The notes: generated by a model not told the origin, from the letters alone. Shown: positions 6,287 through 62,822, counted from the stretch's first letter. The stretch: 64,000 nucleotides of DNA from an uncultured Candidatus Saccharibacteria bacterium (GCA_964589445.1 CAZPQX010000001.1:110098-174097); one strand, 5' to 3'. Numbers and translations are program-made.

Positions 6287-6559
6287 TTAAGCAGCTTTCT
6301 TTAGACCAAGCTTCTTAACTACTGAATTATACCTCTTAGCGTCTTTCTTTTCCAAATACTTCATGTGTGATTTCCTTGCAGCCACAAGTCCCAAAAGCCC
6401 TCTTCTTGAGTGCTTGTCTTTTTTATTTTTCTTTAGGTGAGAAGAAAGGTCGTCTATCCTACGGGAAAGTACGGCTATCTGAACCTCAGGAGAGCCAGTG
6501 TCTGTATCATGCACCTTTACTTCTTTTATTATTTTTTGCTTCTTTGTCTTTGTAAGCAT
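6287..6559 (-). CDS. rpsO: 30S ribosomal protein S15
   Basis: 90 aa; ...SPEVQIAVLSRRIDDLSSHLKKNKKDKHSRRGLLGLVAARKSHMKYL is canonical S15. Confidence 0.9.
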   Translation of the reverse strand: MLTKTKKQKIIKEVKVHDTDTGSPEVQIAVLSRRIDDLSSHLKKNKKDKHSRRGLLGLVAARKSHMKYLEKKDAKRYNSVVKKLGLKKAA

Positions 6560-6659
6560 TACCCCACAAGGTTAGCATAAATACCAATTTTTGGCAAGTG
6601 CCAAGGCAAAAGCCCCATTTTGGCTGATTTTGGGCTCTTTTGACTGTTGAGTTATCCAC

Positions 6660-6688
6660 TTGACATATCTACCTGTTTGGTATATAAT
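6660..6688 (+). promoter_or_regulatory. Perfect sigma70 consensus promoter TTGACA-17 nt-TATAAT
   Basis: ttgaca(6660-6665) tatctacctgtttggta tataat(6683-6688), then AAAGGAG RBS and ATG at 6706. Confidence 0.5.
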
Positions 6689-6705
6689 ATATAAAGGAGT
6701 TCCCA

Positions 6706-7038
6706 ATGACAATCAATATGAACGGCCTCGCTGAGGCCAAGATGAAGTGGTTTTCGGTCAGGATCTTCCTGATCACACTGATCATGTCCCTTGGTTGGAC
6801 GGGAGCTATGGTAGCTTCCCGCACGAGGGGGACCTACCAGGAGGTAAGTCACGAAGTTGGAATGATCATGGCGATGTTAACTTTAATGATCGTACTTCTG
6901 GCGATCCTCTGCCTCTGTGAGGGCAATTGGCAACCCGACCCCAGACCATGGAGCGACCGGACTTATGTGTCTGGGCGAGCATGGGTCTCCATGGCCCTTG
7001 CCCTCCCAATCACCAATATTTTCCTCCTACTACAGTAG
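6706..7038 (+). CDS. Hypothetical small membrane protein; first gene of the high-GC islet
   Basis: ORF with strong promoter and RBS; 2-3 predicted TM helices; GC content far above flanking host genes. Confidence 0.45.
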   Translation: MTINMNGLAEAKMKWFSVRIFLITLIMSLGWTGAMVASRTRGTYQEVSHEVGMIMAMLTLMIVLLAILCLCEGNWQPDPRPWSDRTYVSGRAWVSMALALPITNIFLLLQ

Positions 7039-7112
7039 GAGCAAACCGCCCCGTTTTAGACAAAGCTCCGTGCTCGTCTAGACGGGGCTTTCTGTTTGCT
7101 ATAATAAAGTAG

Positions 7113-8069
7113 ATGGATAAAAAACTTTTAAATACAGATGCAAACGAGCTCCCCTCTCACCCACTCGGGCAACTCGCACGACAATTCCTCGAATACATAG
7201 AGATAGAAAAAGGCCGCAGCCTGAAGACAGTAGATAATTACAAAAGGTACCTCTCAGTATTCCTACAACACACCAAAGTAGAAGATGCGGGAGATATCAC
7301 AGATTCCCTTGTAAGAGAGTTCCGCCTTTGGCTAAACAGGAAAGTGAGCGGCAACAATACGAAGACTGGCGACACTCTCTCACGCAAAACTCAAAACTAT
7401 TATCTGATAGCTTTGCGCGCCTTCCTCAAATATTTAGCTCGTCAAGAAGTGAAGACGCTGCCCGCAGAGAGGATCGAGCTCGCCAAGACTCCTGAGAGGT
7501 CACTCGACCTCATCACCCAAGACGAGCTAGAGCGCCTGATGGAAGCTCCTAAAGGAGAAGATTTGAAATCAATAAGAGACAGGTCTATCCTCGAGCTCCT
7601 CTTTTCAACTGGCCTCCGCGTCTCCGAGCTTTGCTCGCTGAGGCGCGATATCAACCTCAAGGCAGACGAGCTTTCGATACGAGGTAAGGGTGGCAAAGTG
7701 CGTGTCGTCTTCCTTTCTGAAAAGGCCAAAACTTGCGTCAAAGAATATTTGGCAAAAAGGAAAGATATGGACGACGCGCTTTTTGTAAAAGTAGATACTG
7801 AAAAAAGAGCGACCAAGATAGACCCACTCACCCCGCGCTCAGTAGAGAGGATCATCAAGCACTACGCGATAAAGTCCGGCATTTCCAAAAAAGTGACCCC
7901 TCACGTGATAAGGCACTGCTTTGCTACCGACCTCCTTAGCAACGGTGCTGACCTCCGCTCTGTACAAGCACTCCTCGGCCACGCTCACATAGGCACCACA
8001 CAGGTTTATACCCACGTGACCGACAAGCACCTCAAAGAAATCCACAAAAAATTCCATAACAAACGATAG
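7113..8069 (+). CDS. Tyrosine site-specific recombinase (XerC/XerD/phage integrase family)
   Basis: C-terminal catalytic signature ...TGLRVSEL...HVIRHCFATDLLSNGADLRSVQALLGHAHIGTTQVYTHV (R, H-x-x-R, H, Y); N-terminal SAM-like core-binding domain. Confidence 0.85.
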   Translation: MDKKLLNTDANELPSHPLGQLARQFLEYIEIEKGRSLKTVDNYKRYLSVFLQHTKVEDAGDITDSLVREFRLWLNRKVSGNNTKTGDTLSRKTQNYYLIALRAFLKYLARQEVKTLPAERIELAKTPERSLDLITQDELERLMEAPKGEDLKSIRDRSILELLFSTGLRVSELCSLRRDINLKADELSIRGKGGKVRVVFLSEKAKTCVKEYLAKRKDMDDALFVKVDTEKRATKIDPLTPRSVERIIKHYAIKSGISKKVTPHVIRHCFATDLLSNGADLRSVQALLGHAHIGTTQVYTHVTDKHLKEIHKKFHNKR

Positions 8070-8139
8070 CTTGATTTTTATACTCTTTTGGTGTATAATA
8101 TAATTTAGATTGATCTAACAAAAGAAAGGATGGCCCATC

Positions 8140-8862
8140 ATGGGAAAATCAGGAGTAGAACCGGAGGGGAAACCCTCGGTAGAGGCGATGTGGAAGAACC
8201 AGTCCAACCGCCTCCAACTGGCAAGAAATCAGGCTATGGTCGCTCGCAAGCTGGGCGACTATGCCTCCGCCCACAGCGGAATGCTGTCGGCGTACATCAC
8301 CATCCTCGGGGGCAACCCCGTTGAAGGTCGGCACCCAGTGAAGTTTTTCTTGCTGGCGCTGTGGCATGCATTTTGCATGTCGTGGCGGTTGGAGAAGCTC
8401 AACCACAACCAGCTGGATGTATGGATTTCATTCATACTGAAGCTGCGCGCCAAGATGCCGGCGTTTAAAAGCGTGCTAAATAAGACGCTTATAGACGCGG
8501 CTGTCCGCGAAGTAAGGGGCGCAAACACCAACGGCAAGCATCACCAGCTAGGTCTTGCACTGCTCACCTATGCCGAGGTGTTGCTTGCAACAGTTTACTG
8601 GGGTGATGAAACCCCTACCATAGTTAAAAATAAGATCAGAGTGGCTCTTGATCTGGAGCCACTGATCCGAGAAGAGTCCGAACAACCCCAAGGCCTGCAG
8701 CAGCTTGTCCGGATTCTCCGGAAAGCGGGCGAGCTCTACATCGCCCTTGGAGAACCACTCCAAGGGAAAGCGTACCTCAACTATGCTCTCGTCCTCGCCC
8801 AAGGCGAGGCAGATGCCCCAGACCAAGTCCCCAAGATCAAGGCTATACTGGCCAAGATCTAA
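8140..8862 (+). CDS. Hypothetical protein (240 aa), high-GC islet cargo
   Basis: Long ORF with RBS (aaaggatggcccatcATG) and an intrinsic terminator downstream; its start region is conserved with the gene at 35683. Confidence 0.5.
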   Translation: MGKSGVEPEGKPSVEAMWKNQSNRLQLARNQAMVARKLGDYASAHSGMLSAYITILGGNPVEGRHPVKFFLLALWHAFCMSWRLEKLNHNQLDVWISFILKLRAKMPAFKSVLNKTLIDAAVREVRGANTNGKHHQLGLALLTYAEVLLATVYWGDETPTIVKNKIRVALDLEPLIREESEQPQGLQQLVRILRKAGELYIALGEPLQGKAYLNYALVLAQGEADAPDQVPKIKAILAKI

Positions 8863-8869
8863 AACCCAA

Positions 8870-8911
8870 CCGCCCCTTCGGCACAAAATCCGAAGGAGGC
8901 GGATTTTGTTT
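8870..8911 (+). terminator. Rho-independent terminator
   Basis: ccgccccttcgg ... ccgaaggaggcgg hairpin followed by attttgttt. Confidence 0.5.
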
Positions 8912-8964
8912 ATATAAAGAGGAAAAATTTGAAAAAAAATGGTTTTCGTGTTAATTTTTTGCTC

Positions 8965-10032
8965 ATGCAATACAACGTAAAATCAAAAAAACTTCCTAAT
9001 TCGGAAGTTGAAATAGAGGTTAGTTTACCAGCTGAGGAGCTTGAAAAAGCCAGGAAAACAGCCATAAAAGAATTATCAGAAACCATGGAGATAGATGGCT
9101 TCAGGAAAGGCCATGTACCAGAAAATGTGGTACTCGAAAGAGCTGGAGAAGACCTTTTGCTCGAGAGAGCCGCTGATGTAGTACTCCAAAAACACTTCCA
9201 ATCAATAGTACTACAGGAGAAGTTTGATACCTTAGGTCACCCAGAAGTTTCTGTGACCAAACTTGCTCTTGGTAACCCTTTTGAATTTAAGGCAAAGTTT
9301 GCCGTGATGCCAGAGTTTGAGCTCCCCGACTACAAAAAAATAGCCAAGAAAATAAGAGAAGAAAACAAAAAAGAAGATAAGGAGTTTGAGGCAACCGAAA
9401 AAGAAGTTGATGATGTGCTTTTGCAAATAAGAAAGAACAAAGCTCACATCGAATGGCACAAAAACAACCCAGAAGCAGATCATCACGACCATGGAGATTT
9501 GGAAAATCCAGAGAGCCTCCCCGAGCTTACCGACGAGCTTGCAAAAGAAGCTGGTAATTTCAAAGATGTCGAGGAGCTTAAGGCAAAAATAAAAGAAAAT
9601 ATTATTTCAGAAAAAAAGCAGCGCGAAGCAGACAAGACAAGAGCTAAGATGATGGAGGCGATACTCAAAGACACTAAGATAGAGCTTCCAGAGGTACTTG
9701 TCGAAGCCGAGATAAACAAATCGATCGCACAGCTCAAAGACGATGTCGCAAGGATGGGCGGCAGTTGGGAAGATTATCTTTCACATACCAAAAAGACAGA
9801 GGATGACTTAAGGAAGGATATGCGCAACTCTTCTGCAGAAAGAGCCAAGATACAGCTCATATTCAACAAGATAGCTATAGCCGAAAAAATTGAACCGAAT
9901 GAGGAGATAATGGAGCAGGAAGTGAAGGTAATAAAAGAGCATTATAAAGATGCTTCAGAGCAAAGCGCTCGCATCTATGTGGCTACTATCCTCATCAATC
10001 AAGCAGTTTTGAAACTTTTGGAGAGCCAGTAG
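8965..10032 (+). CDS. tig: Trigger factor
   Basis: MQYNVKSKKLPNSEVEIEVSLPAEELEKARK... fits the trigger factor N-terminal domain, then PPIase-like and C-terminal domains; the ORF-table start at 8929 is probably a 12-codon over-extension. Confidence 0.8.
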   Translation: MQYNVKSKKLPNSEVEIEVSLPAEELEKARKTAIKELSETMEIDGFRKGHVPENVVLERAGEDLLLERAADVVLQKHFQSIVLQEKFDTLGHPEVSVTKLALGNPFEFKAKFAVMPEFELPDYKKIAKKIREENKKEDKEFEATEKEVDDVLLQIRKNKAHIEWHKNNPEADHHDHGDLENPESLPELTDELAKEAGNFKDVEELKAKIKENIISEKKQREADKTRAKMMEAILKDTKIELPEVLVEAEINKSIAQLKDDVARMGGSWEDYLSHTKKTEDDLRKDMRNSSAERAKIQLIFNKIAIAEKIEPNEEIMEQEVKVIKEHYKDASEQSARIYVATILINQAVLKLLESQ

Positions 10033-32054: not shown

Positions 32055-32126
32055 GGCCTCATCGTCTAACGGTTAGGACGGAGCCTTCTCAAGGCTTAAA
32101 TCGGGGTTCGATTCCCCGTGAGGTCA
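32055..32126 (+). tRNA. tRNA-Glu (anticodon CUC), 72 nt, CCA not encoded
   Basis: Cloverleaf by hand: acceptor ggcctca/tgaggtc (one G-U), D stem gtct/ggac, anticodon stem gagcc/ggctt with loop ttCTCaa, T arm cgggg-ttcgatt-ccccg. Confidence 0.75.
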
Positions 32127-32160
32127 CATTCAACAGCTAGCACGAGAAGCGTGCGAAATA

Positions 32161-32859
32161 ATGCTTCTTTACTGCCGAAGTTTTGTACATAATTACATTA
32201 TGAAGGAACACTTTGACAAAAATAAACGCCAGATATTGATGACAATTACACATCTGAATCGTTTTCATCTGCGCGCAGTAAGAAAAGATACTAAAGTAAG
32301 TGAAATTAGTTTAGATAATATTTTTGCAAAAATTATTATAGGGCTCTGGGTATCTCTATTAGAGGTTGAGTATGAATTATTAAACAGTAAAGTTGGATTA
32401 AAAAAAGAAAAAGATTCTTTAAAAGATAAATATTTGAAATTGTTAGATAGATTGTTTCAAGAAAAGTATTTAAATAATAGCGGAAAAGATATTAACCAAA
32501 GGAATTTAGGTCACGATAGTTATCATCGTTACAAAACTCTTAATGACATTATAAATAATGAATTAGCTAATTATATTGAGATTAGAAATAAAATAGCTCA
32601 TGGTCAATGGCATGTTGCTTTTTCAGATTCCGGAAAGGTTAATAATGACATAACCGCACATGTATGGAAATTATCTAAAAAAGATCTCCTCATTCTGAAA
32701 ACACTTGTCATAAATATACCTGCAATTTTAAATATTCTTTTTCAAAGCAAGAAAACTTTTGAAAGAGATTTTAATAAAATAATAAATAAAGTCTTATTAT
32801 CAAAAGAAGATAATGAAATCAGGTTTGGCTGGCTAAAAAATAAAGCTAGGAAAATATGA
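32161..32859 (+). CDS. Rx4H (HEPN-type) motif protein A, Abi-like; possible start at 32200 (MKEHFDK)
   Basis: ...ELANYIEIRNKIAHGQWHV... contains R-N-K-I-A-H in an alpha-helical context, resembling the RNxxAH signature of Abi_2/AbiD-type HEPN proteins; AT-rich accessory DNA next to a tRNA. Confidence 0.5.
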   Translation: MLLYCRSFVHNYIMKEHFDKNKRQILMTITHLNRFHLRAVRKDTKVSEISLDNIFAKIIIGLWVSLLEVEYELLNSKVGLKKEKDSLKDKYLKLLDRLFQEKYLNNSGKDINQRNLGHDSYHRYKTLNDIINNELANYIEIRNKIAHGQWHVAFSDSGKVNNDITAHVWKLSKKDLLILKTLVINIPAILNILFQSKKTFERDFNKIINKVLLSKEDNEIRFGWLKNKARKI

Positions 32860-33515
32860 GCCTTCTAGAAAATAAACCCAATAGTAAAGAGGAAAAAGTT
32901 CTAGAACTTTTCTATAATAGATTTTACGATTTGTACGAGGAATTATATCAAGAGGAGTTTTTTAAGAGAGAAGAATCCTACAGATTCTATCGAATACGAG
33001 AAATCTTTTCTGTATACAAAGAACTACTAGGGTATGAACCAATCCAATACTATATTAAATATGTTAAAAATGGGGGTAGACCACCTCTTGAGGGTTTAAT
33101 TGTTGATGATCTTTTTAGTTTTGTAAGAAACCTACTTCTACACTTTCCAGTTTTTGATAAATGGGAAGATGTTTACATAAGTAAAGATTTAGCTACTTGG
33201 AATAAAGTAGGTACTATTCATAAGTTTCTATTAAAAAGCAGTAAAATAAAAATCGATGATAGTGGAGTTATAAAATATAGGATATGGGAAAAGAGCAAAA
33301 AGCTAATGACTTATATTCAATTCCACTTACCAGAAGAATACAACGATAGTAGAAAAATATTCCTTAAAGAGGTTATTTCTGAAACAGATGGTATCAAACT
33401 TTGCATATCTTTTATGAAGCAAGTTCTAGATACACAAGTTCATTCTAATACTGAGGAGGATATTGTAATAATGTCTCAAGTTTACATGCCAATTCCTGAA
33501 ACTAGAAATCCATAG
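32856..33515 (+). CDS. Rx4H (HEPN-type) motif protein B, translationally coupled to protein A (ATGA overlap)
   Basis: ...DLFSFVRNLLLHFPVFDKWE... contains R-N-L-L-L-H; 4-nt overlap with the upstream gene. Confidence 0.5.
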   Translation: MSLLENKPNSKEEKVLELFYNRFYDLYEELYQEEFFKREESYRFYRIREIFSVYKELLGYEPIQYYIKYVKNGGRPPLEGLIVDDLFSFVRNLLLHFPVFDKWEDVYISKDLATWNKVGTIHKFLLKSSKIKIDDSGVIKYRIWEKSKKLMTYIQFHLPEEYNDSRKIFLKEVISETDGIKLCISFMKQVLDTQVHSNTEEDIVIMSQVYMPIPETRNP

Positions 33516-33679
33516 TCGCACGGGAAGGGTCATTAGAAACTTAATAACGTTACTCAGAATAACCTTACTGGACAACAAATCAGACAGGTTCTATCTCGAG
33601 AAGGCTCACCTTTTAGAGAGCGCTCGGGAAGGATATGAAAATTGGAGACTTTTTTCATTAAAAATGTATAATTTATTAA

Positions 33680-34303
33680 ATGGAATTTGTCTATATAGGT
33701 TTTGGATGGCTACTGGGTCTTTTAGCCCCAGCAACCACAAAACGGATTGCGGATCATTATGAAAAACAGAATCTTGAAAAGATTATTCTTAATGACATAA
33801 AAGATTTAAAGAAAAGACTCGGGGGAATACCCTATCTTGTATACCCTAAGCACGGAAAATTAAATCAAGAGATTTTTAATTGGATTAAAAGTAATTCTAG
33901 TATTGACTTCGATACCGGATTAACGCAACTTGCTGAACAAGGATTAACTGAGACCCAGATAATAAATCATCTAAATACAATAGGACAACAAGATGTAACA
34001 ACAACATACTTTAAGAAAGTAAACCTTTTTGCGACAGACTCTCATCTTACTAAATTAAGTTTAATTGAAAATAATCTAATGGAGAAAATTTTAGAGATAA
34101 AATTCCATGTACAAGCACTAAATGAAGACATCGATAGTTTTAGGGATGATCTAAAAATGACGTTTATGCCAGGAATCACTCCACAAAATCATATAATAGT
34201 ATCGGTTGAAATTGATAAAAAGAGTTTAATGATTGCAAAAAAGTCTATGTTTATAGTTGATAAAATTAATGAAATTCTATTCTCTCGAAAAGGGTCGAAA
34301 TAA
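33680..34303 (+). CDS. Hypothetical membrane-anchored protein (1 N-terminal TM helix), third gene of the accessory island
   Basis: MEFVYIGFGWLLGLLAPATT... TM helix, then a soluble domain with no recognised family; TGTATAAT box at 33657-33664. Confidence 0.45.
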   Translation: MEFVYIGFGWLLGLLAPATTKRIADHYEKQNLEKIILNDIKDLKKRLGGIPYLVYPKHGKLNQEIFNWIKSNSSIDFDTGLTQLAEQGLTETQIINHLNTIGQQDVTTTYFKKVNLFATDSHLTKLSLIENNLMEKILEIKFHVQALNEDIDSFRDDLKMTFMPGITPQNHIIVSVEIDKKSLMIAKKSMFIVDKINEILFSRKGSK

Positions 34304-34376: not shown

Positions 34377-34405
34377 TTGACAATTACTTAATTTAGGAGT
34401 ATAAA
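34377..34405 (+). promoter_or_regulatory. Sigma70-like promoter TTGACA-17-TATAAA, followed by a 15-aa uORF (34422-34469, MKKLLGKDVCVYEKK) whose TGA overlaps the ATG of the downstream gene
   Basis: ttgaca(34377-82) attacttaatttaggag tataaa(34400-05); AGGAG RBS; ATGA coupling at 34466-34469. Confidence 0.35.
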
Positions 34406-34465
34406 AAAATAGGAGTACCTCATGAAAAAACTACTAGGTAAAGATGTTTGTGTATATGAGAAAAA

Positions 34466-35035
34466 ATGAATACGACTAATAGAACACAACAGCTCTGCGA
34501 CGCCCTCAAACAAGGCGCACCCTGGGGTTCACTCGCAAGATTCCTCGACACGATCAATTTGATCGAAGAATTGGAACAATTGGCCCCTATACTCCATGGA
34601 TCAAATAAAGCGGATCTAGCCGAGTACTACAAGGAGAACCTCCTTCGGTGGCCTGACCCCCAATTGCCGGCAGGGTTCAGCGAGAAGTACCCCCTGTTCT
34701 CTGCACGGCTAGATACACCAGGAAAAATTCGCATTCTTTTGCGGGGTGCATACTACCGCGATGTCCCCCCAGAAATTATGGGCGATGTTTTCGAAGAGAT
34801 CATCCGCCGTCACGAGGTGGAAGGCGAGAGAAAAATCGTTTATCGCAACTACCGCAACACTACGCGCGATCGCGCTTTGCGAATCGTATACCACACCCAG
34901 CTCCCATACTGGACCCTGACGGAACTGGCCCTGAATGGAATGCCCAACGTCGGCATTTCTACCAAAGAAGGTCTCTTCCTCGATTGGAGAACAAAAGAGG
35001 AGAGACTCGCAGCCGGCGAAACCGTGTATTCATAG
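34466..35035 (+). CDS. Hypothetical protein (189 aa), high-GC islet
   Basis: Abrupt GC jump exactly at the start codon; terminator with the same 3' end (ggcggattttgtt) as the 8140 gene. Confidence 0.5.
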   Translation: MNTTNRTQQLCDALKQGAPWGSLARFLDTINLIEELEQLAPILHGSNKADLAEYYKENLLRWPDPQLPAGFSEKYPLFSARLDTPGKIRILLRGAYYRDVPPEIMGDVFEEIIRRHEVEGERKIVYRNYRNTTRDRALRIVYHTQLPYWTLTELALNGMPNVGISTKEGLFLDWRTKEERLAAGETVYS

Positions 35036-35042
35036 TCAATTA

Positions 35043-35090
35043 GCCGCCCACAACAGGACAAGATCCGTTGGAGGGCGGATTTTGTTATCT
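35043..35090 (+). terminator. Rho-independent terminator
   Basis: gccgccc...ggagggcgg hairpin + attttgttatct; the 3' half is nearly identical to the terminator at 8890-8911. Confidence 0.45.
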
Positions 35091-35328
35091 AAATTTTCCA
35101 TAAGAATAGTTTATTCCTAAATAAACTTATTTTCAAAAACCTACCCCCCCATTGACTTCCCCATCATTTGAAGGCCGGCGGCTTTTTTTAAAAAATTCCA
35201 AATATCCCCTTCAAAAATTCAACAAATTTGTGGAGAAGAAATAATAATCAAAATTCTCTTTACAAAGTTTAAAAATACTTGCAAAACTGTATTGGCCTGA
35301 TAAGATCTGCAACGGAAAGGAGAAAGCC

Positions 35329-35553
35329 ATGAAGGTTTGCCCACATCGTGGTGAAAAATTCTCTAAGCGCAGGTGGGATAGAGAGACCAACCCACCCAAG
35401 ATGCGCTGTGCATCGTGCAGTGTCACTCTATTTTCCAGAGAAGGAATCCTAGACACCTGGGAATTTCTTCATCCTCCCGACGAAGGAGGGATAGGGAAAA
35501 AGCTGAATAAGCAAAAACCCAAAGAAGAACCTTCGTTCGGGGAGGAATACTAG
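35329..35553 (+). CDS. Small zinc-ribbon-like protein (74 aa)
   Basis: GGAGAAAGCC-ATG RBS; CPHRGEKF...CASCS Cys/His pairs. Confidence 0.4.
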   Translation: MKVCPHRGEKFSKRRWDRETNPPKMRCASCSVTLFSREGILDTWEFLHPPDEGGIGKKLNKQKPKEEPSFGEEY

Positions 35554-35682
35554 AACCTAAGTCTCCCTCACCCCCCTCAGCCGCCGCCCCACCACGGGCG
35601 ACCTTTCTTTTTCTCCTCTTTTTATCGCCTTGACACACCATATTTAATATTGTAATTTCTTAAAAGAAAGGCTTTTCATCAT

Positions 35683-35970
35683 ATGGGGAAATTAGGAGTT
35701 GAGCCTCAGACCGAGGCCATGATCCTGGAGAACTTAGGTAAGTCTCTCCAGACACTTCGAGATGAAAATCCCGAAGCCACCTTCGACAAAGAATTGGTCG
35801 AGGCGATTTGCTTAGAGCGAGTGTTCCCTCATCAAGCAGCAGGCCTGCTTGGAATGACAGAAGACGCCTCGCTCGACTTGTTTTTTGGGCTGTTTCGCCA
35901 AGAGTCGTCGCGACAGGAGTTCTTCTCGTTCTACGTGGTGCGGTGGAAGCAGAAGCACCAAGAACACTAA
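35683..35970 (+). CDS. Hypothetical protein (95 aa), high-GC; N-terminus MGKLGVEPQTE similar to the 8140 gene (MGKSGVEPEGK)
   Basis: About 45 nt spanning RBS and start are conserved with 8100-8160 (aaaagaaagg....catcatgggaaaatcaggagt.ga.cc). Confidence 0.4.
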   Translation: MGKLGVEPQTEAMILENLGKSLQTLRDENPEATFDKELVEAICLERVFPHQAAGLLGMTEDASLDLFFGLFRQESSRQEFFSFYVVRWKQKHQEH

Positions 35971-36069
35971 AACGAACCCCTCGCCCGCCGCGCCCACAAG
36001 GCCGGCGGCTTTCTTTTTGTTAAAATTTTAAGTCCCCCGCCCCAACCCACAATTTGCTATAATATACTC

Positions 36070-53191: not shown

Positions 53192-55102
53192 ATGTTTGTA
53201 ATAGATTGCCTCCCCTTTTCAAAAGGTCTCAAGAAAGATAATCTTTCATACTTTTCTTCAGAATATGTGACCCCCGGCTCTTTGATCAAAATAACAGTAA
53301 GAAACCAAAAATTATCAGCTCTGGTCATAGACTCAAAAGATGCCCGTGAACGCAAAGCAGAAATAAAATCTGCAGATTTCAAACTAAGCAAAATATCCTC
53401 TCTCGTCTCAAAGCCTTTTTTGAGCAAAGAGTTCCTTTCTGCTGTCCAAGAAACTTCTAGTTTTTTCTCTGCAAACGAAGGCTCCATACTCTCTCAGCTC
53501 ATCCCCGCATCATTTCTTGAAAATCCCTCCCTTATCACATCTAAAAAGAAAAATATTTCTTTCAATACCGAGGAAAAGAAAAAAGCAGATGTGCTAGCCA
53601 TACAGTCTGAAGAGGACGACAGGATGAGCAATTATAGACTGCTCATAAGAGAAGAATTCGCTAAAAACAAATCTGTTTTCTTTTGCATTCCACAAAATGA
53701 AAGTATATTAAATCTCAAAAAAGAACTTTCTCGTGGTATAGACTCATATATATGTACTTTCCACAAAGACATGAGCAAAAAAGAATTCAAGGAGGAATGG
53801 GAAAGAGCAAATGACTCTTCACACCCAGTGGTGATAATAGGCACATCTAAATGGCTTTTTATGGAAAGAGAAGACCTCGGGGCTATCGTGCTTGAAAATG
53901 AAAACAAAAATGGCTGGAAAACTCTCTTTAGGCCTTTTGTGGATATGCGTTTCCTTATTGAAAAATATGCTGAAAAAAGAAGAGTGAGAATTATATTTGG
54001 AGACTTGGTTTTAAGGCTTGAGACACTTAGCCGATATAAACAAGGAGAAATATTGAGTTTTGAAAACGTGAAATGGCGAATAAGTGAGGATGTTGAAACA
54101 AGAGTGATAGACATGAAAAAAGACTTAAAAAAAAGCAGCGAGTTCCGATCTGTGTCTCTTGAGCTACTTGAATCAATAAAAGAAAATATAGAAAACAAAT
54201 CTAACATGTTTATCTTTTCTTCTAGGAAGGGATTTTCTTCAAACATAATATGCAGGGATTGTGGAGAAGAAGTAAAATGTTTCAACTGTGAGAGCCCTAT
54301 GGTTTTGTATAAAAAGAAAAATTTTGATGGAGGAGAAGAAAATATATTTCGCTGCCACCAGTGTGACGAGAGGAGAGATGCCTTAGAGCACTGCCAAAAA
54401 TGCCGCAGCTGGAGGCTTGAGGCTTTTGGGTCGGGCATAGAGAGAGTGGTTGAAGAAATAAAAAAGGTACTACCAGGGGTAGCTTTGTATGAACTAAGTA
54501 GTGACACTGCTACAAGCAGCAACAAGGCTTCAATTATCGTAAACAATTTTTATGAAAACAGAGGAGCAATACTTATCGGGACAGAAATGGCACTCCCCTA
54601 CCTTCATAAAAAAGTTTCTTCTACAGCTATAGCATCTTTTGACTCACTCTTTTCTGTACCTGACTTCCGTATAGGAGAAAAGATTTTTAGTATCATCCTC
54701 GAAACCAAATCTCTAGCAAAAACACGCTTTTTTATACAAACAAGAAACACAGAAGATGAGTACGTAAAAAGTGCTATGAGTGGAAACGTAAATAAATTTT
54801 ATGAAGACGAGCTTGGTGACAGGAGAGCTCTCGGATATCCTCCTTTTGGCATTTTTATCAAAATTACAGTACGAGGACAGAGAAACCTGGTGCAAAAAGA
54901 ATCAGAAAAATTGAAAAAATATTTCTCTGAATATGACAGTTCGTTTTTCTCATCACTCCACGAAAAAAAGGGTGAGGCTTCCTGCTTTAATGCTGTTATA
55001 AAAGTTAAAAAAGAAGAGTGGCCTGACCCAGAAATCAGCTCGATACTCAAATCCCTACCCCCTCACTTCGAAATCAAAGTCGACCCAGACAACCTACTAT
55101 AA
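53192..55102 (+). CDS. Primosomal protein N-prime (PriA)-like with degenerate helicase motifs
   Basis: N-terminal 3'BD-like region; C-terminal Cys4-Cys4 zinc region (CRDCGEEVKCFNCESP...CHQCDERRDALEHCQKC) typical of PriA; Walker A GxGKT not found and the DEEH box reads LENE. Confidence 0.55.
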   Translation: MFVIDCLPFSKGLKKDNLSYFSSEYVTPGSLIKITVRNQKLSALVIDSKDARERKAEIKSADFKLSKISSLVSKPFLSKEFLSAVQETSSFFSANEGSILSQLIPASFLENPSLITSKKKNISFNTEEKKKADVLAIQSEEDDRMSNYRLLIREEFAKNKSVFFCIPQNESILNLKKELSRGIDSYICTFHKDMSKKEFKEEWERANDSSHPVVIIGTSKWLFMEREDLGAIVLENENKNGWKTLFRPFVDMRFLIEKYAEKRRVRIIFGDLVLRLETLSRYKQGEILSFENVKWRISEDVETRVIDMKKDLKKSSEFRSVSLELLESIKENIENKSNMFIFSSRKGFSSNIICRDCGEEVKCFNCESPMVLYKKKNFDGGEENIFRCHQCDERRDALEHCQKCRSWRLEAFGSGIERVVEEIKKVLPGVALYELSSDTATSSNKASIIVNNFYENRGAILIGTEMALPYLHKKVSSTAIASFDSLFSVPDFRIGEKIFSIILETKSLAKTRFFIQTRNTEDEYVKSAMSGNVNKFYEDELGDRRALGYPPFGIFIKITVRGQRNLVQKESEKLKKYFSEYDSSFFSSLHEKKGEASCFNAVIKVKKEEWPDPEISSILKSLPPHFEIKVDPDNLL

Positions 55103-55140
55103 GATAGAAAAAATAAGAGAAATGTTGTAAATTATGAAGC

Positions 55141-55698
55141 ATGGAAGGAATATTACAAAGAGAAAATAAGATCTTGAGAAATAAGTCTCTCGAGGTGCCA
55201 GTGGAAGCAATCAAGACTCGCAAAATAGAAGTCATCATAAACATGATGAAAAAAGCGCTTGATTCTCAGGAAGACGGCGTGGCTATCGCAGCTCCTCAAA
55301 TAGGAGAAAATTTGCGCATCTTTGTAGTATCCAAAAGGATATTTGAGATAATGGAAGAGGAAAAAAGTAAGTCCAGGTCAAAGAGAGAAAACTTAGAGAG
55401 CTTCGAGAAAGAGGGACTGGACTACACAGATATGGTTTTTATAAATCCAGTCATTCTCAAACAATCAAAAAAGAAAAGTTTAGTAGAAGAAGGATGCCTA
55501 TCTGTGAGGTGGTTGTATGGAAAAGTAGAGAGGTTCGACAAAACACTTGTACGTGCCTATGACGAGAATGGCCAAATATTTACCATGGGTGGCTCTGGAC
55601 TAATGTCACAAGTTTTCCAACACGAAATAGACCACCTCGACGGAATACTTTTCATAGATAAAGCAAAAAAATTAAAAGAAATGCCACCAAAATCATAA
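55141..55698 (+). CDS. def: Peptide deformylase (with a Lys/Glu-rich insertion)
   Basis: Motifs GVAIAAPQIG, EGCLSV, QHEIDHLDG. Confidence 0.85.
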   Translation: MEGILQRENKILRNKSLEVPVEAIKTRKIEVIINMMKKALDSQEDGVAIAAPQIGENLRIFVVSKRIFEIMEEEKSKSRSKRENLESFEKEGLDYTDMVFINPVILKQSKKKSLVEEGCLSVRWLYGKVERFDKTLVRAYDENGQIFTMGGSGLMSQVFQHEIDHLDGILFIDKAKKLKEMPPKS

Positions 55699-62227: not shown

Positions 62228-62822
62228 GGATAGGTTTACACTCAAGGCTGGTATACTTATGTATATATGCCAGAGAAGAGAACCTATGCTGATCGTGCTG
62301 AATATTTGCGAGAAGCCGTCAAAAAAAGAAGGAAAAAACTTCGAGAAATGGCTCGCGAATATGGTGGAGGTAAGTGTGCAATATGTGGTTATAAAAAATC
62401 ACCAAGAGCACTAGCCTTTCATCATCTCAACCCACAAGAAAAAGATTTTGGACTTTCCGTTAAAGGATTGACCAGATCCTGGGAAAAGATGAGGAAAGAA
62501 ATAGATAAATGTATCTTGCTTTGCGCAAACTGCCACGCAGAAGTGCACGATGGTATTACGCAGCTTCCCGAGGTAACTCGGGTTGAAAAACGAGGTGAAT
62601 TCGGGGAAGCCCTTCGTGGGTAATCCCGAGCCAAGACCAGCACTAATTTTGGTTTTTAATTTTTATAAATCAAAATTAGTGCTGGTAAGGTGTAGAGACT
62701 ATCCGTAATTGGAGTACTTTTCGGACTAAAAGTCCGGATGGGAAGCGCCTCGCCACTTATATCTCACAGAGATTTTAAGTGGATGATATAGTCCATCCCT
62801 CTTAGAAATTTGAGGATAAATG
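62228..62822 (+). mobile_element. Group I intron (about 595 nt) within the tRNA anticodon loop
   Basis: Catalytic-core hallmarks near the 3' end: R-like tttcggactaaaagtccgg and S-like gatgatatagtcc (P7 pairing gacta/tagtc); intron ends with G before exon 2; encodes an HNH ORF. Confidence 0.6.
62267..62623 (+). CDS. HNH homing endonuclease encoded within the group I intron
   Basis: GGGKCAICGYKK...LAFHHLNPQEKDFG...LLCANCHAEVHDG (Cys pairs, HH and N...CANCH HNH motif). Confidence 0.75.
   Translation: MPEKRTYADRAEYLREAVKKRRKKLREMAREYGGGKCAICGYKKSPRALAFHHLNPQEKDFGLSVKGLTRSWEKMRKEIDKCILLCANCHAEVHDGITQLPEVTRVEKRGEFGEALRG

Follow-up and report, generated by a model that had tools for sequence, protein, structure and literature searches.

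Is a tyrosine recombinase gene that lies among GC-rich open reading frames (ORFs) the integrase of a small mobile island, or is it a gene of the host chromosome next to which other DNA has settled? This question is raised by a 2.3-kb segment between rpsO and tig in a 64-kb stretch of DNA from an uncultured Candidatus Saccharibacteria bacterium (GCA_964589445.1; CAZPQX010000001.1, 110098-174097). We refer to this entire stretch as the window and count all coordinates from its first letter. In an earlier note, the segment had been described as a mini-island with a consensus promoter, a small membrane protein (here ORF1), an imperfect hairpin, a XerC/D-like recombinase (here xer) and a protein of 240 amino acids (aa) without a known family (here ORF3), and had been proposed to be either an integrative mobilisable element or a Xer-type recombinase module with its recombination site in the hairpin. 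We are fairly confident that this GC-rich block is instead a composite of three independent transcription units, the resident xer gene and two accessory inserts, and that it represents fairly ordinary genome variation. A recombinase amid GC-rich ORFans need not be an island's integrase, and an attractive misreading is corrected in this case; the locus also documents where accessory genes gather in the very small genomes of Patescibacteria.

The recombinase gene and its chromosomal setting

The xer product possesses an N-terminal SAM-like and a C-terminal catalytic domain (Phage_int_SAM_1, PF02899, 6.5e-13; Phage_integrase, PF00589, 1.5e-45). Its best matches in the PDB are XerA from the archaeon Pyrococcus abyssi (4a8e, 1.9e-43) and XerD from Escherichia coli (1a0p, 3.8e-42), and in alignments with both, the R, K, HxxR, H, and Y catalytic motifs are matched by its residues GLRVSEL, GKGGK, HVIRH, LLGH, and VYTHV. 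The complete catalytic set noted before is consequently present in a protein that resembles these chromosomal recombinases in its two-domain build, its size of about 300 aa, and its encoding by a conserved chromosomal gene under strong purifying selection. Among the NCBIfam models, the cut-off of recomb_XerA_Arch was passed (NF040815; 235.4 bits versus 220), while the protein stayed below the equivalog cut-offs of XerC (TIGR02224; 243 versus 335 bits) and XerD (TIGR02225; 241 versus 330 bits). It is far from the integron integrases (IntI models TIGR02249, 128 versus 265 bits, and NF011946, 79 versus 435 bits) and from XerS (NF003462; 114 versus 267 bits), matches XerH (5jjv) only weakly and over the catalytic domain (1.4e-14), and with 318 aa is shorter than the XerS and XerH proteins of about 356 aa. 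These scores place the recombinase in the Xer family as a new, XerA-like member and set it apart from IntI, XerS, and XerH; by homology, it would serve to resolve chromosome dimers or act in a related kind of housekeeping recombination. The earlier notion of a Xer-type module therefore holds insofar as the recombinase is Xer-like and the genes at its sides are accessory DNA missing from close relatives, but the suggested likeness to XerS and XerH does not hold.

The genes of the window most closely resemble those of Paceibacteria-type Patescibacteria assembled from metagenomes, such as Nomura-, Zambryski-, Taylor-, and Wolfebacteria. We scanned one genome per species for the recombinase gene and obtained 80 loci (L008-L087; contigs of relatives carry numbers of the type L001-L106), whose encoded proteins are 65-77% identical to the Xer of the window. 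The gene was found in all 80 loci retrieved, and homologues with 70-79% identity are widespread in Patescibacteria. Directly upstream of xer, rpsO is located in divergent orientation in 71 of the 80 loci (NYN <- rpsO <- | -> xer), and a NYN-domain gene follows next beyond rpsO in 68, as it does in the window; six of the nine loci that break the rpsO-xer order have a contig end within 800 bp. Downstream of xer, 61 of 72 loci possess xth (exonuclease III), whose place is taken by tig only in the window's own genus. The ratio of non-synonymous to synonymous substitution rates (dN/dS) of xer is 0.03-0.07. Its GC content tracks that of the locus across species, from 0.31 to 0.55, and in the window's clade exceeds the background by 0.06 to 0.08 even where the flanking ORFs are missing (0.49 versus 0.43 in L007; 0.50 versus 0.42 in L008). 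The conserved NYN-rpsO and xth synteny, the widespread homologues, the low dN/dS, and a GC content that follows the locus demonstrate that xer is the organism's own, vertically inherited recombinase gene and was not imported. The same recombinase at the same position by vertical descent was the observation named in the earlier note as speaking against an island, and it is what 71 of the 80 species present, with the GC content already elevated in L007 and L008.

In the window, which is AT-rich with an average GC content of about 0.40, the 1-kb bins 7001-8000 (0.484) and 8001-9000 (0.491) are the top two of 64, and the GC content at third codon positions (GC3) of ORF1, xer, and ORF3 exceeds that of rpsO and tig (Table 1). 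The reported GC-rich stretch of 2.3 kb is hence real, but it is no homogeneous block: it consists of three separate transcription units with AT-rich promoter regions between them. The middle unit appears to be read from an extended -10 promoter, whose sequence TTTGCTATAAT is conserved in L007, L088, and L091 and found at the same position in many of the species loci. Since the -10 element is only 9 nt away from the ATG and no Shine-Dalgarno sequence is present, the xer mRNA is probably leaderless or nearly so, a trait apparently conserved across Paceibacteria.

Alleles at the two flanks of xer

The comparison of the rpsO-tig junction among relatives, suggested in the earlier note, provided empty sites: L007 and L088-L092 lack both ORF1 and ORF3. 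The genes in L007 are ordered T2SSE-NYN-rpsO-xer-tig-rsmE-clpP; its xer is 92% identical to that of the window, and T2SSE, NYN, and rpsO are 98-99% identical. The alignment between window and L007 breaks at 6668/7091 on the left and at 8069/8924 on the right of xer. Three alleles occupy the left site: a 108-bp rpsO-xer spacer without cargo in L091 and L092 (xer 91% identical), a 300-bp spacer in L007 and L088-L090 with an unrelated, hairpin-rich segment of about 170 bp behind the same -35 box, and the 553-bp version with ORF1 in the window. The right site is represented by 47 bp between xer and tig (L007, L088-L090, L092), by 134 bp with a different hairpin (L091), and by the 854-bp ORF3 module. 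L093 and L094 contain this module with the same two ends, and in L095 xer is directly followed by an ORF3 homologue. Because ORF3 is shared with these contigs, ORF1 is found nowhere else, and xer is kept without either, the two inserts are independent of each other and of xer and have separate histories.

The segment of about 170 bp in the alternative left allele corresponds to L007 2937-3112, is the same in L088-L090, and lies behind a shared TTGACG -35 box. Besides two hairpins, it contains a stem that resembles a terminator, GAGCCGTCAA...TTGGCGGCTC with TTTATT behind it, and could encode a small RNA or a 61-codon ORF without a ribosome-binding site (RBS). A decayed copy of ORF1 was ruled out by a global alignment, which revealed no homology.

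The left insert of the window begins within a promoter. The boxes TTGACA (6660-6665) and TATAAT (6683-6688) justify its earlier description as a textbook promoter. Its -35 part is common to L007, with a good alignment up to about 6668, while the -10 part and everything downstream are specific to the window. An AAAGGAG RBS (6693-6699) ends 6 nt upstream of the ATG at 6706, also as described. ORF1 would be a small membrane protein, with hydrophobic segments at residues 18-38, 50-72, and 92-110 in hydropathy analysis, two of them strong and one weaker; its TAG stop codon indeed lies within a palindrome, CCTAC-TACA-GTAGG. No homologue besides ORF1 itself was found among 5.8 billion protein clusters.

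The imperfect hairpin behind ORF1 was likewise recovered. Together with the small hairpin at the stop codon, it lies in an 86-nt stretch (7025-7110) that folds with -36.5 kcal/mol (z = -6.1), and none of 200 shuffled sequences was as stable; a scan found a terminator-like inner stem at 7073-7086. The hairpin at 7040-7100 resides inside the ORF1-specific insert (6669-7090) and is missing from L007 and L091, which retain the same xer. For this reason, it is not the conserved recombination site of Xer, as had been proposed, and, judged by where it lies and by its T-rich tail, it is the predicted terminator of ORF1. A search of Rfam with 6400-9100 returned nothing at the gathering level; two sub-threshold matches to small RNAs both cover the rpsO leader.

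The right insert takes the place of 8 nt of the L007 sequence and begins 1 nt past the stop codon of xer. ORF3 has no match in Pfam, NCBIfam, PHROGs, or PADLOC, in agreement with the earlier description of a 240-aa protein without known family. Its own family comprises 35 close homologues and 119 clusters at 50% identity, is of the Patescibacteria type, and displays several invariant motifs, LNHNQLDV and RILRKxxE among them. With dN/dS values of 0.12-0.24 that indicate purifying selection, a synonymous divergence (dS) equal to that of the neighboring xer and tig (L093/L094), a confident fold, and its 119 clusters, ORF3 is a real gene. The AlphaFold model (predicted local distance difference test score of 90.8) contains 12 helices and resembles only generic 14-3-3, TPR, and designed-repeat folds in the PDB (template-modeling scores 0.42-0.46, E-values of 1e-3 or weaker); a single protein of 1130 aa matches the C-terminal helix pair of ORF3 10 times. 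A protein-binding scaffold is the most that the modeled fold suggests. Candidate start codons for the gene that follows are ATG 8965 and TTG 8929, of which the former is the most likely start of tig according to the gene call in L007.

Table 1. Features of the xer locus and of further small cassettes in the window
Feature	Position	Strand	Remarks
rpsO, ribosomal protein S15	6287..6559	-	Pfam Ribosomal_S15, 6.4e-32; left neighbor, divergent from xer; GC3 0.385
Promoter of ORF1 unit, sigma-70 type	6660..6688	+	TTGACA-17-TATAAT; 12 of 12 consensus positions
Left variable segment, ORF1 cassette cargo	6669..7090	+	blastn breakpoints 6668 and 7091 versus relatives
ORF1, predicted membrane protein	6706..7038	+	110 aa; 2-3 transmembrane segments; GC 0.526, GC3 0.667; singleton ORFan
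Long imperfect hairpin followed by TTTCTGTTT	7040..7100	+	predicted ORF1 terminator; abuts xer promoter
Extended -10 promoter of xer	7095..7103	+	TGCTATAAT
xer, Xer-family tyrosine recombinase	7113..8069	+	318 aa; Pfam, NCBIfam, and PDB matches; GC3 0.545
Right insert, ORF3 cassette	8070..8923	+	promoter, 5' untranslated region, ORF3, terminator; blastn breakpoints 8069/8924
Promoter of ORF3	8071..8099	+	TTGATT-17-TATAAT; 76% identical over 33 nt to ORF1 promoter
ORF3, all-alpha helical-repeat protein	8140..8862	+	240 aa; GC 0.548, GC3 0.643
3' hairpin and T-run of ORF3 cassette	8866..8912	+	AACCGCCCCTTCGG-CACAAAAT-CCGAAGGAGGCGG-ATTTTGTTT; predicted terminator
tig, trigger factor	8965..10032	+	Pfam Trigger_N/Trigger_C; right neighbor of xer; GC3 0.413
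Mini-cassette ORF	34466-35035	+	189 aa; GC 0.52; ORF3-type 3' hairpin at 35043-35090
Mini-cassette ORF	35329-35553	+	74 aa; Cys-rich, possibly zinc ribbon
Mini-cassette ORF	35683-35970	+	95 aa; GC 0.51; 5' untranslated region of ORF3 and N-terminal MGKxGVEP

Relatives of the inserts at other chromosomal sites

Members of the ORF3 family reside at at least nine different chromosomal sites, xer|tig included, and lie beside xer only in the window's genus. The other sites are the def|priA junction (L001-L003); a position beside a gene for a DUF378-like small membrane protein, a label given from the sequence with no family search run, in the region that corresponds to 32-37 kb of the window (L097, L099-L101); the neighborhood of the ATP synthase operon (L004-L006); a position after a GDSL lipase gene (L106); one between redox genes (L105); one near a Schlafen/AlbA_2 gene (L104); an unannotated context (L096); and a 7.5-kb ORFan array near a serine recombinase gene (L103). 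At the def|priA junction the window is empty, with a 38-bp gap at 55102-55141. The GC content of the homologues is 0.49-0.55 compared to 0.40-0.47 for their hosts; the sole exception is the most divergent homologue (39% identity), which matches its host. As read from these non-orthologous sites, the ORF3 family has relocated many times among Paceibacteria genomes.

The array in L103 (1-10814) comprises about 15 GC-rich ORFans (GC 0.48-0.57 versus 0.36-0.41 for the flanking genes) and adjoins a gene for a large serine recombinase and a weak match to a replication protein. A repeated element, composed of a hairpin and then CTTCCAYCAAAG...TTTGATGGGAGTTCTTTC...TCAAATAT...AGGAG, lies upstream of several of its ORFs and also occurs in L004 (5880-5995), L096, L001, and L104. 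The array looks like an integrated element and might be a donor pool for cassettes. When we compared the five GC-rich cassette proteins of the window with the array ORFs of L103, L004, and L001, no homology was detected except for ORF3.

The ORF3 cassette carries a 3' hairpin with the tail ATTTTGTTT that folds with -23 kcal/mol (z = -4.0). Hairpins of this type are kept in seven distinct contexts, and their 3' half, ATCCGnnGGA(G)GGCGGATTTTGTT, is invariant even at a protein identity of 42%. Among nine elements, two variable stem pairs have both partners exchanged, and pairing is seen in 84% of the cells. The same type of hairpin also follows two unrelated ORFs, the 189-aa ORF of the window (Table 1) and a 226-aa ORF in L099; on these unrelated GC-rich ORFs the invariant 3' half-hairpin holds a perfect 10-7-10 inverted repeat. 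The ORF1 hairpin shares the opening AACCGCCCC...ACAAA with the ORF3 type and has a similar end. Because both consist of stable, G+C-rich stems followed by T-runs at the 3' ends of genes, they are predicted to act as rho-independent terminators.

Three consecutive mini-cassettes on the plus strand, each with its own promoter and terminator, are located at 34400-36000 of the window, 27 kb from xer (Table 1); their ORFs have no family match. They are preceded by a tRNA gene (32055-32126) and three very AT-rich ORFs that extend to 34303 (GC 0.27-0.31; 232, 219, and 207 aa; no Pfam match), a stretch that is probably another acquired segment. Together, the stretch 32055-34303 and the cassettes at 34.4-36 kb form a variable region that holds an ORF3 homologue in L097, L099, and L101.

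Since unrelated ORFs share a promoter type, a 3' element, and a 5' untranslated region, at least five small, GC-rich, self-expressed modules of the window appear to derive from a single gene pool. If the shared promoter and 3' hairpin hold up, they would point to a gene-shuttling pool in organisms with few known mobile elements. We found no match to phage, defense, or plasmid genes for ORF1, ORF3, or the other cassettes in PHROGs, PADLOC, and Pfam.

Routes by which the modules may have reached xer

On each side of xer, the window thus harbors a small accessory module, equipped with a sigma-70-type promoter, an RBS, and a predicted hairpin terminator of its own. The modules would stem from a mobile gene pool richer in GC and would have entered the xer transcription unit at its two intergenic boundaries. 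Entry most likely occurred by homology-assisted or illegitimate recombination, and Xer itself probably played no part in it. Such a route is suggested by the exchange of alleles between conserved flanks, by the lack of site-specific scars, by a jump in dS at rpsO|xer, and by boundaries that tolerate insertions. The dS values between window and L007 are 0.11 for rpsO, 0.46-0.51 for NYN and T2SSE, and 0.71-0.76 for xer and tig, a step that points to a recombination breakpoint between rpsO and xer. Direct repeats around 6600 and 8925, for which a more sensitive search had been proposed, were not found at a 7-nt seed; a search for direct and inverted att-like repeats at this seed across 6450-9050 yielded only the three similar promoters (6659, 7078, and 8070) and short repeats at chance level. 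Insertion hotspots exist on either side of xer across the class: more than 300 bp separate rpsO from xer in 25 of 68 species, compared to one of 68 for NYN|rpsO, and small ORFs, often GC-rich singletons, are placed between xer and xth in about half of the loci. Interlopers at xer|xth also include a toxin-antitoxin-like small pair, recognized by sequence features only, and ORF6N-like genes. In their presence/absence polymorphism, atypical composition, self-contained expression signals, and lack of recombinase scars, the modules behave like ordinary strain-variable ORFans at transcription-unit boundaries; unlike these, several unrelated ORFs share a promoter type and a 3' element, a hint of a common donor pool.

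Several observations weigh against this interpretation. Measured by dS, L007 is at least as close to the window as L094, which bears ORF3; some lineages may have lost ORF3, or may have exchanged it by homologous recombination, instead of a single gain having taken place. The coding status of ORF1 is deduced only from its promoter, its RBS, its length of 110 stop-free codons, and its GC3. The donor pool was not found in IMG/VR, either by protein or by 3' element, nor among the INPHARED phages or PLSDB plasmids. Lastly, the inserts lie exceptionally close to xer, at 22 nt from its start codon on the left and 1 nt past its stop codon on the right, and both flanks are hotspots, so that some involvement of the recombinase is possible.

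This last point leads to an unlikely alternative, in which the resident Xer recombined a xer-adjacent site with the 3' hairpin of the cassettes, in the manner of integrons, the pdif modules of Acinetobacter, or integrative mobile elements exploiting Xer (IMEX). Both cassettes touch the xer unit at 7091 and 8070, the occupied gaps around xer are frequent, and unrelated GC-rich ORFs share the invariant, repeat-containing half-hairpin. If Xer capture were true, a Xer-dependent cassette system working like integrons or pdif modules would exist in the Candidate Phyla Radiation. Small single-gene units near a tyrosine recombinase gene are indeed what integron cassettes and Acinetobacter pdif modules present (PMC12907356, PMC11705084), and unrelated ORFs with a common conserved 3' hairpin likewise recall both. 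However, integron cassettes are promoterless and form one array, whereas those of the window possess their own promoters and lie on both sides of xer, and most members of the family are far from any recombinase gene. The hairpins differ from attC in ending with T-runs, as ordinary terminators do, and GTTTATA, GTTTGCT, and GTTATCT do not fit GTTRRRY when read by eye; neither RYYYAAC/GTTRRRY cores, again judged by eye, nor flanking inverted Xer sites were seen. Moreover, ORF3-family cassettes occur at at least eight sites away from any xer, three more cassettes of the window are 27 kb distant from it, none of the inserts has the same site at its two ends, the IntI and XerS models score far below their cut-offs, and transcription-unit boundaries are permissive for insertions anyway.

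A dif site measures about 28 bp, consists of two inverted arms of 11 bp, and is located at the replication terminus. Within the 64-kb window we identified no cognate dif: no dif-like inverted repeat stands out, and no palindrome is convincing. A 14-nt motif, ATGTCGCACAATAT, lies at the start of xer, within about 100 bp, in 55 of the 80 species loci. Of these 55 loci, each of about 10 kb, 53 contain a single copy of the motif's exact 10-mer core, ATTGTGCGAC, and the other two contain two copies. The motif is found in either orientation and in four configurations, namely upstream of the -10 box, within the -35 region, as the opening codons (MSHNI), and between the -10 box and the ATG (for examples, see L010 4956-4969, L012 4915-4995, L034 2525-2604, and L072 4396-4416). 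The linkage to xer persists in loci that lack an adjacent rpsO, and full palindromes of the motif are present in five species loci, those of L012, L034, and L072 among them. In its position, it resembles difSL of the streptococcal XerS and difH of the Helicobacter XerH systems and thereby favors a role of Xer in capture; genetic linkage of xer and dif is possibly a hallmark of single-recombinase Xer systems (PMC5357621).

Unlike difSL and difH, however, the Paceibacteria motif is a single half-site: a position-weight scan found no regular second arm beside it. It is also missing from the window lineage, with no copy at up to two mismatches in the 64-kb window and none in L007, L088, and L091, and its full palindrome has no match in viral contigs. 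On these three findings we rejected a classic two-arm dif; the motif could be a Xer-binding or dif-like arm or an operator. Inserts of the IMEX or pdif kind, bounded by two motif copies, were rejected as well, since a second motif-like copy was seen in only one of 25 occupied gaps of relatives (L049), which is about the chance level. A limited library yielded no paper on Xer or dif in Patescibacteria or the Candidate Phyla Radiation; if the motif holds up, it would be the first handle on the uncharacterised Xer/dif system of the phylum. It seems quite unlikely that xer and the 14-nt site of Paceibacteria form a linked module whose flanks capture GC-rich, hairpin-bearing cassettes in a Xer-dependent fashion, the site having since eroded in the window.

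We regard it as very unlikely that the flanking ORFs are ancestral and were deleted in the relatives, or that ORF1 is no gene, with the GC excess reflecting local constraints. The equal dS of ORF3 and its flanks in L093/L094 does speak for a long residence at the site, the presence/absence pattern is unlike that of a single gain, and ORF1 has no homologue. Yet the homologues of ORF3 sit at many non-orthologous sites and keep their GC content and their own terminator, the def|priA site is filled in L001 and empty in the window, the GC3 excess of the flanking ORFs (0.64-0.67) affects synonymous sites, and ORF1 has a perfect promoter, a consensus RBS, and 110 codons free of stops. That the whole of 6600-8925 is a small integrative (mobilisable) element with its own integrase, as three contiguous genes with the highest GC of the window around an intact tyrosine recombinase might suggest, is extremely improbable, since xer holds this place in 71 of 80 species and in close relatives devoid of both other genes, the three genes differ in their distribution (ORF1 unique, ORF3 patchy, xer in all 80 loci), flanking direct repeats are missing, and the GC content of xer is raised in relatives without the flanking ORFs.

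Two minor observations concern other elements in these genomes. In three species loci, an ORF6N/KilA-N-like gene for a putative DNA-binding protein is positioned between the motif plus promoter and xer (L064 4433-4950, L069 4400-4950, and L072 4416-4960); it contains an internal palindrome, GGTCGCAAATTGCGACC, and the assignment was made by eye from the motif ...IRGxKVMLDSDLAxLYGVxTKRLNEAVKRN..., with no family search run. Far from xer, the window carries a group I catalytic intron at 62535-62815 (Rfam RF00028, 64.5 bits, E = 4.7e-14).

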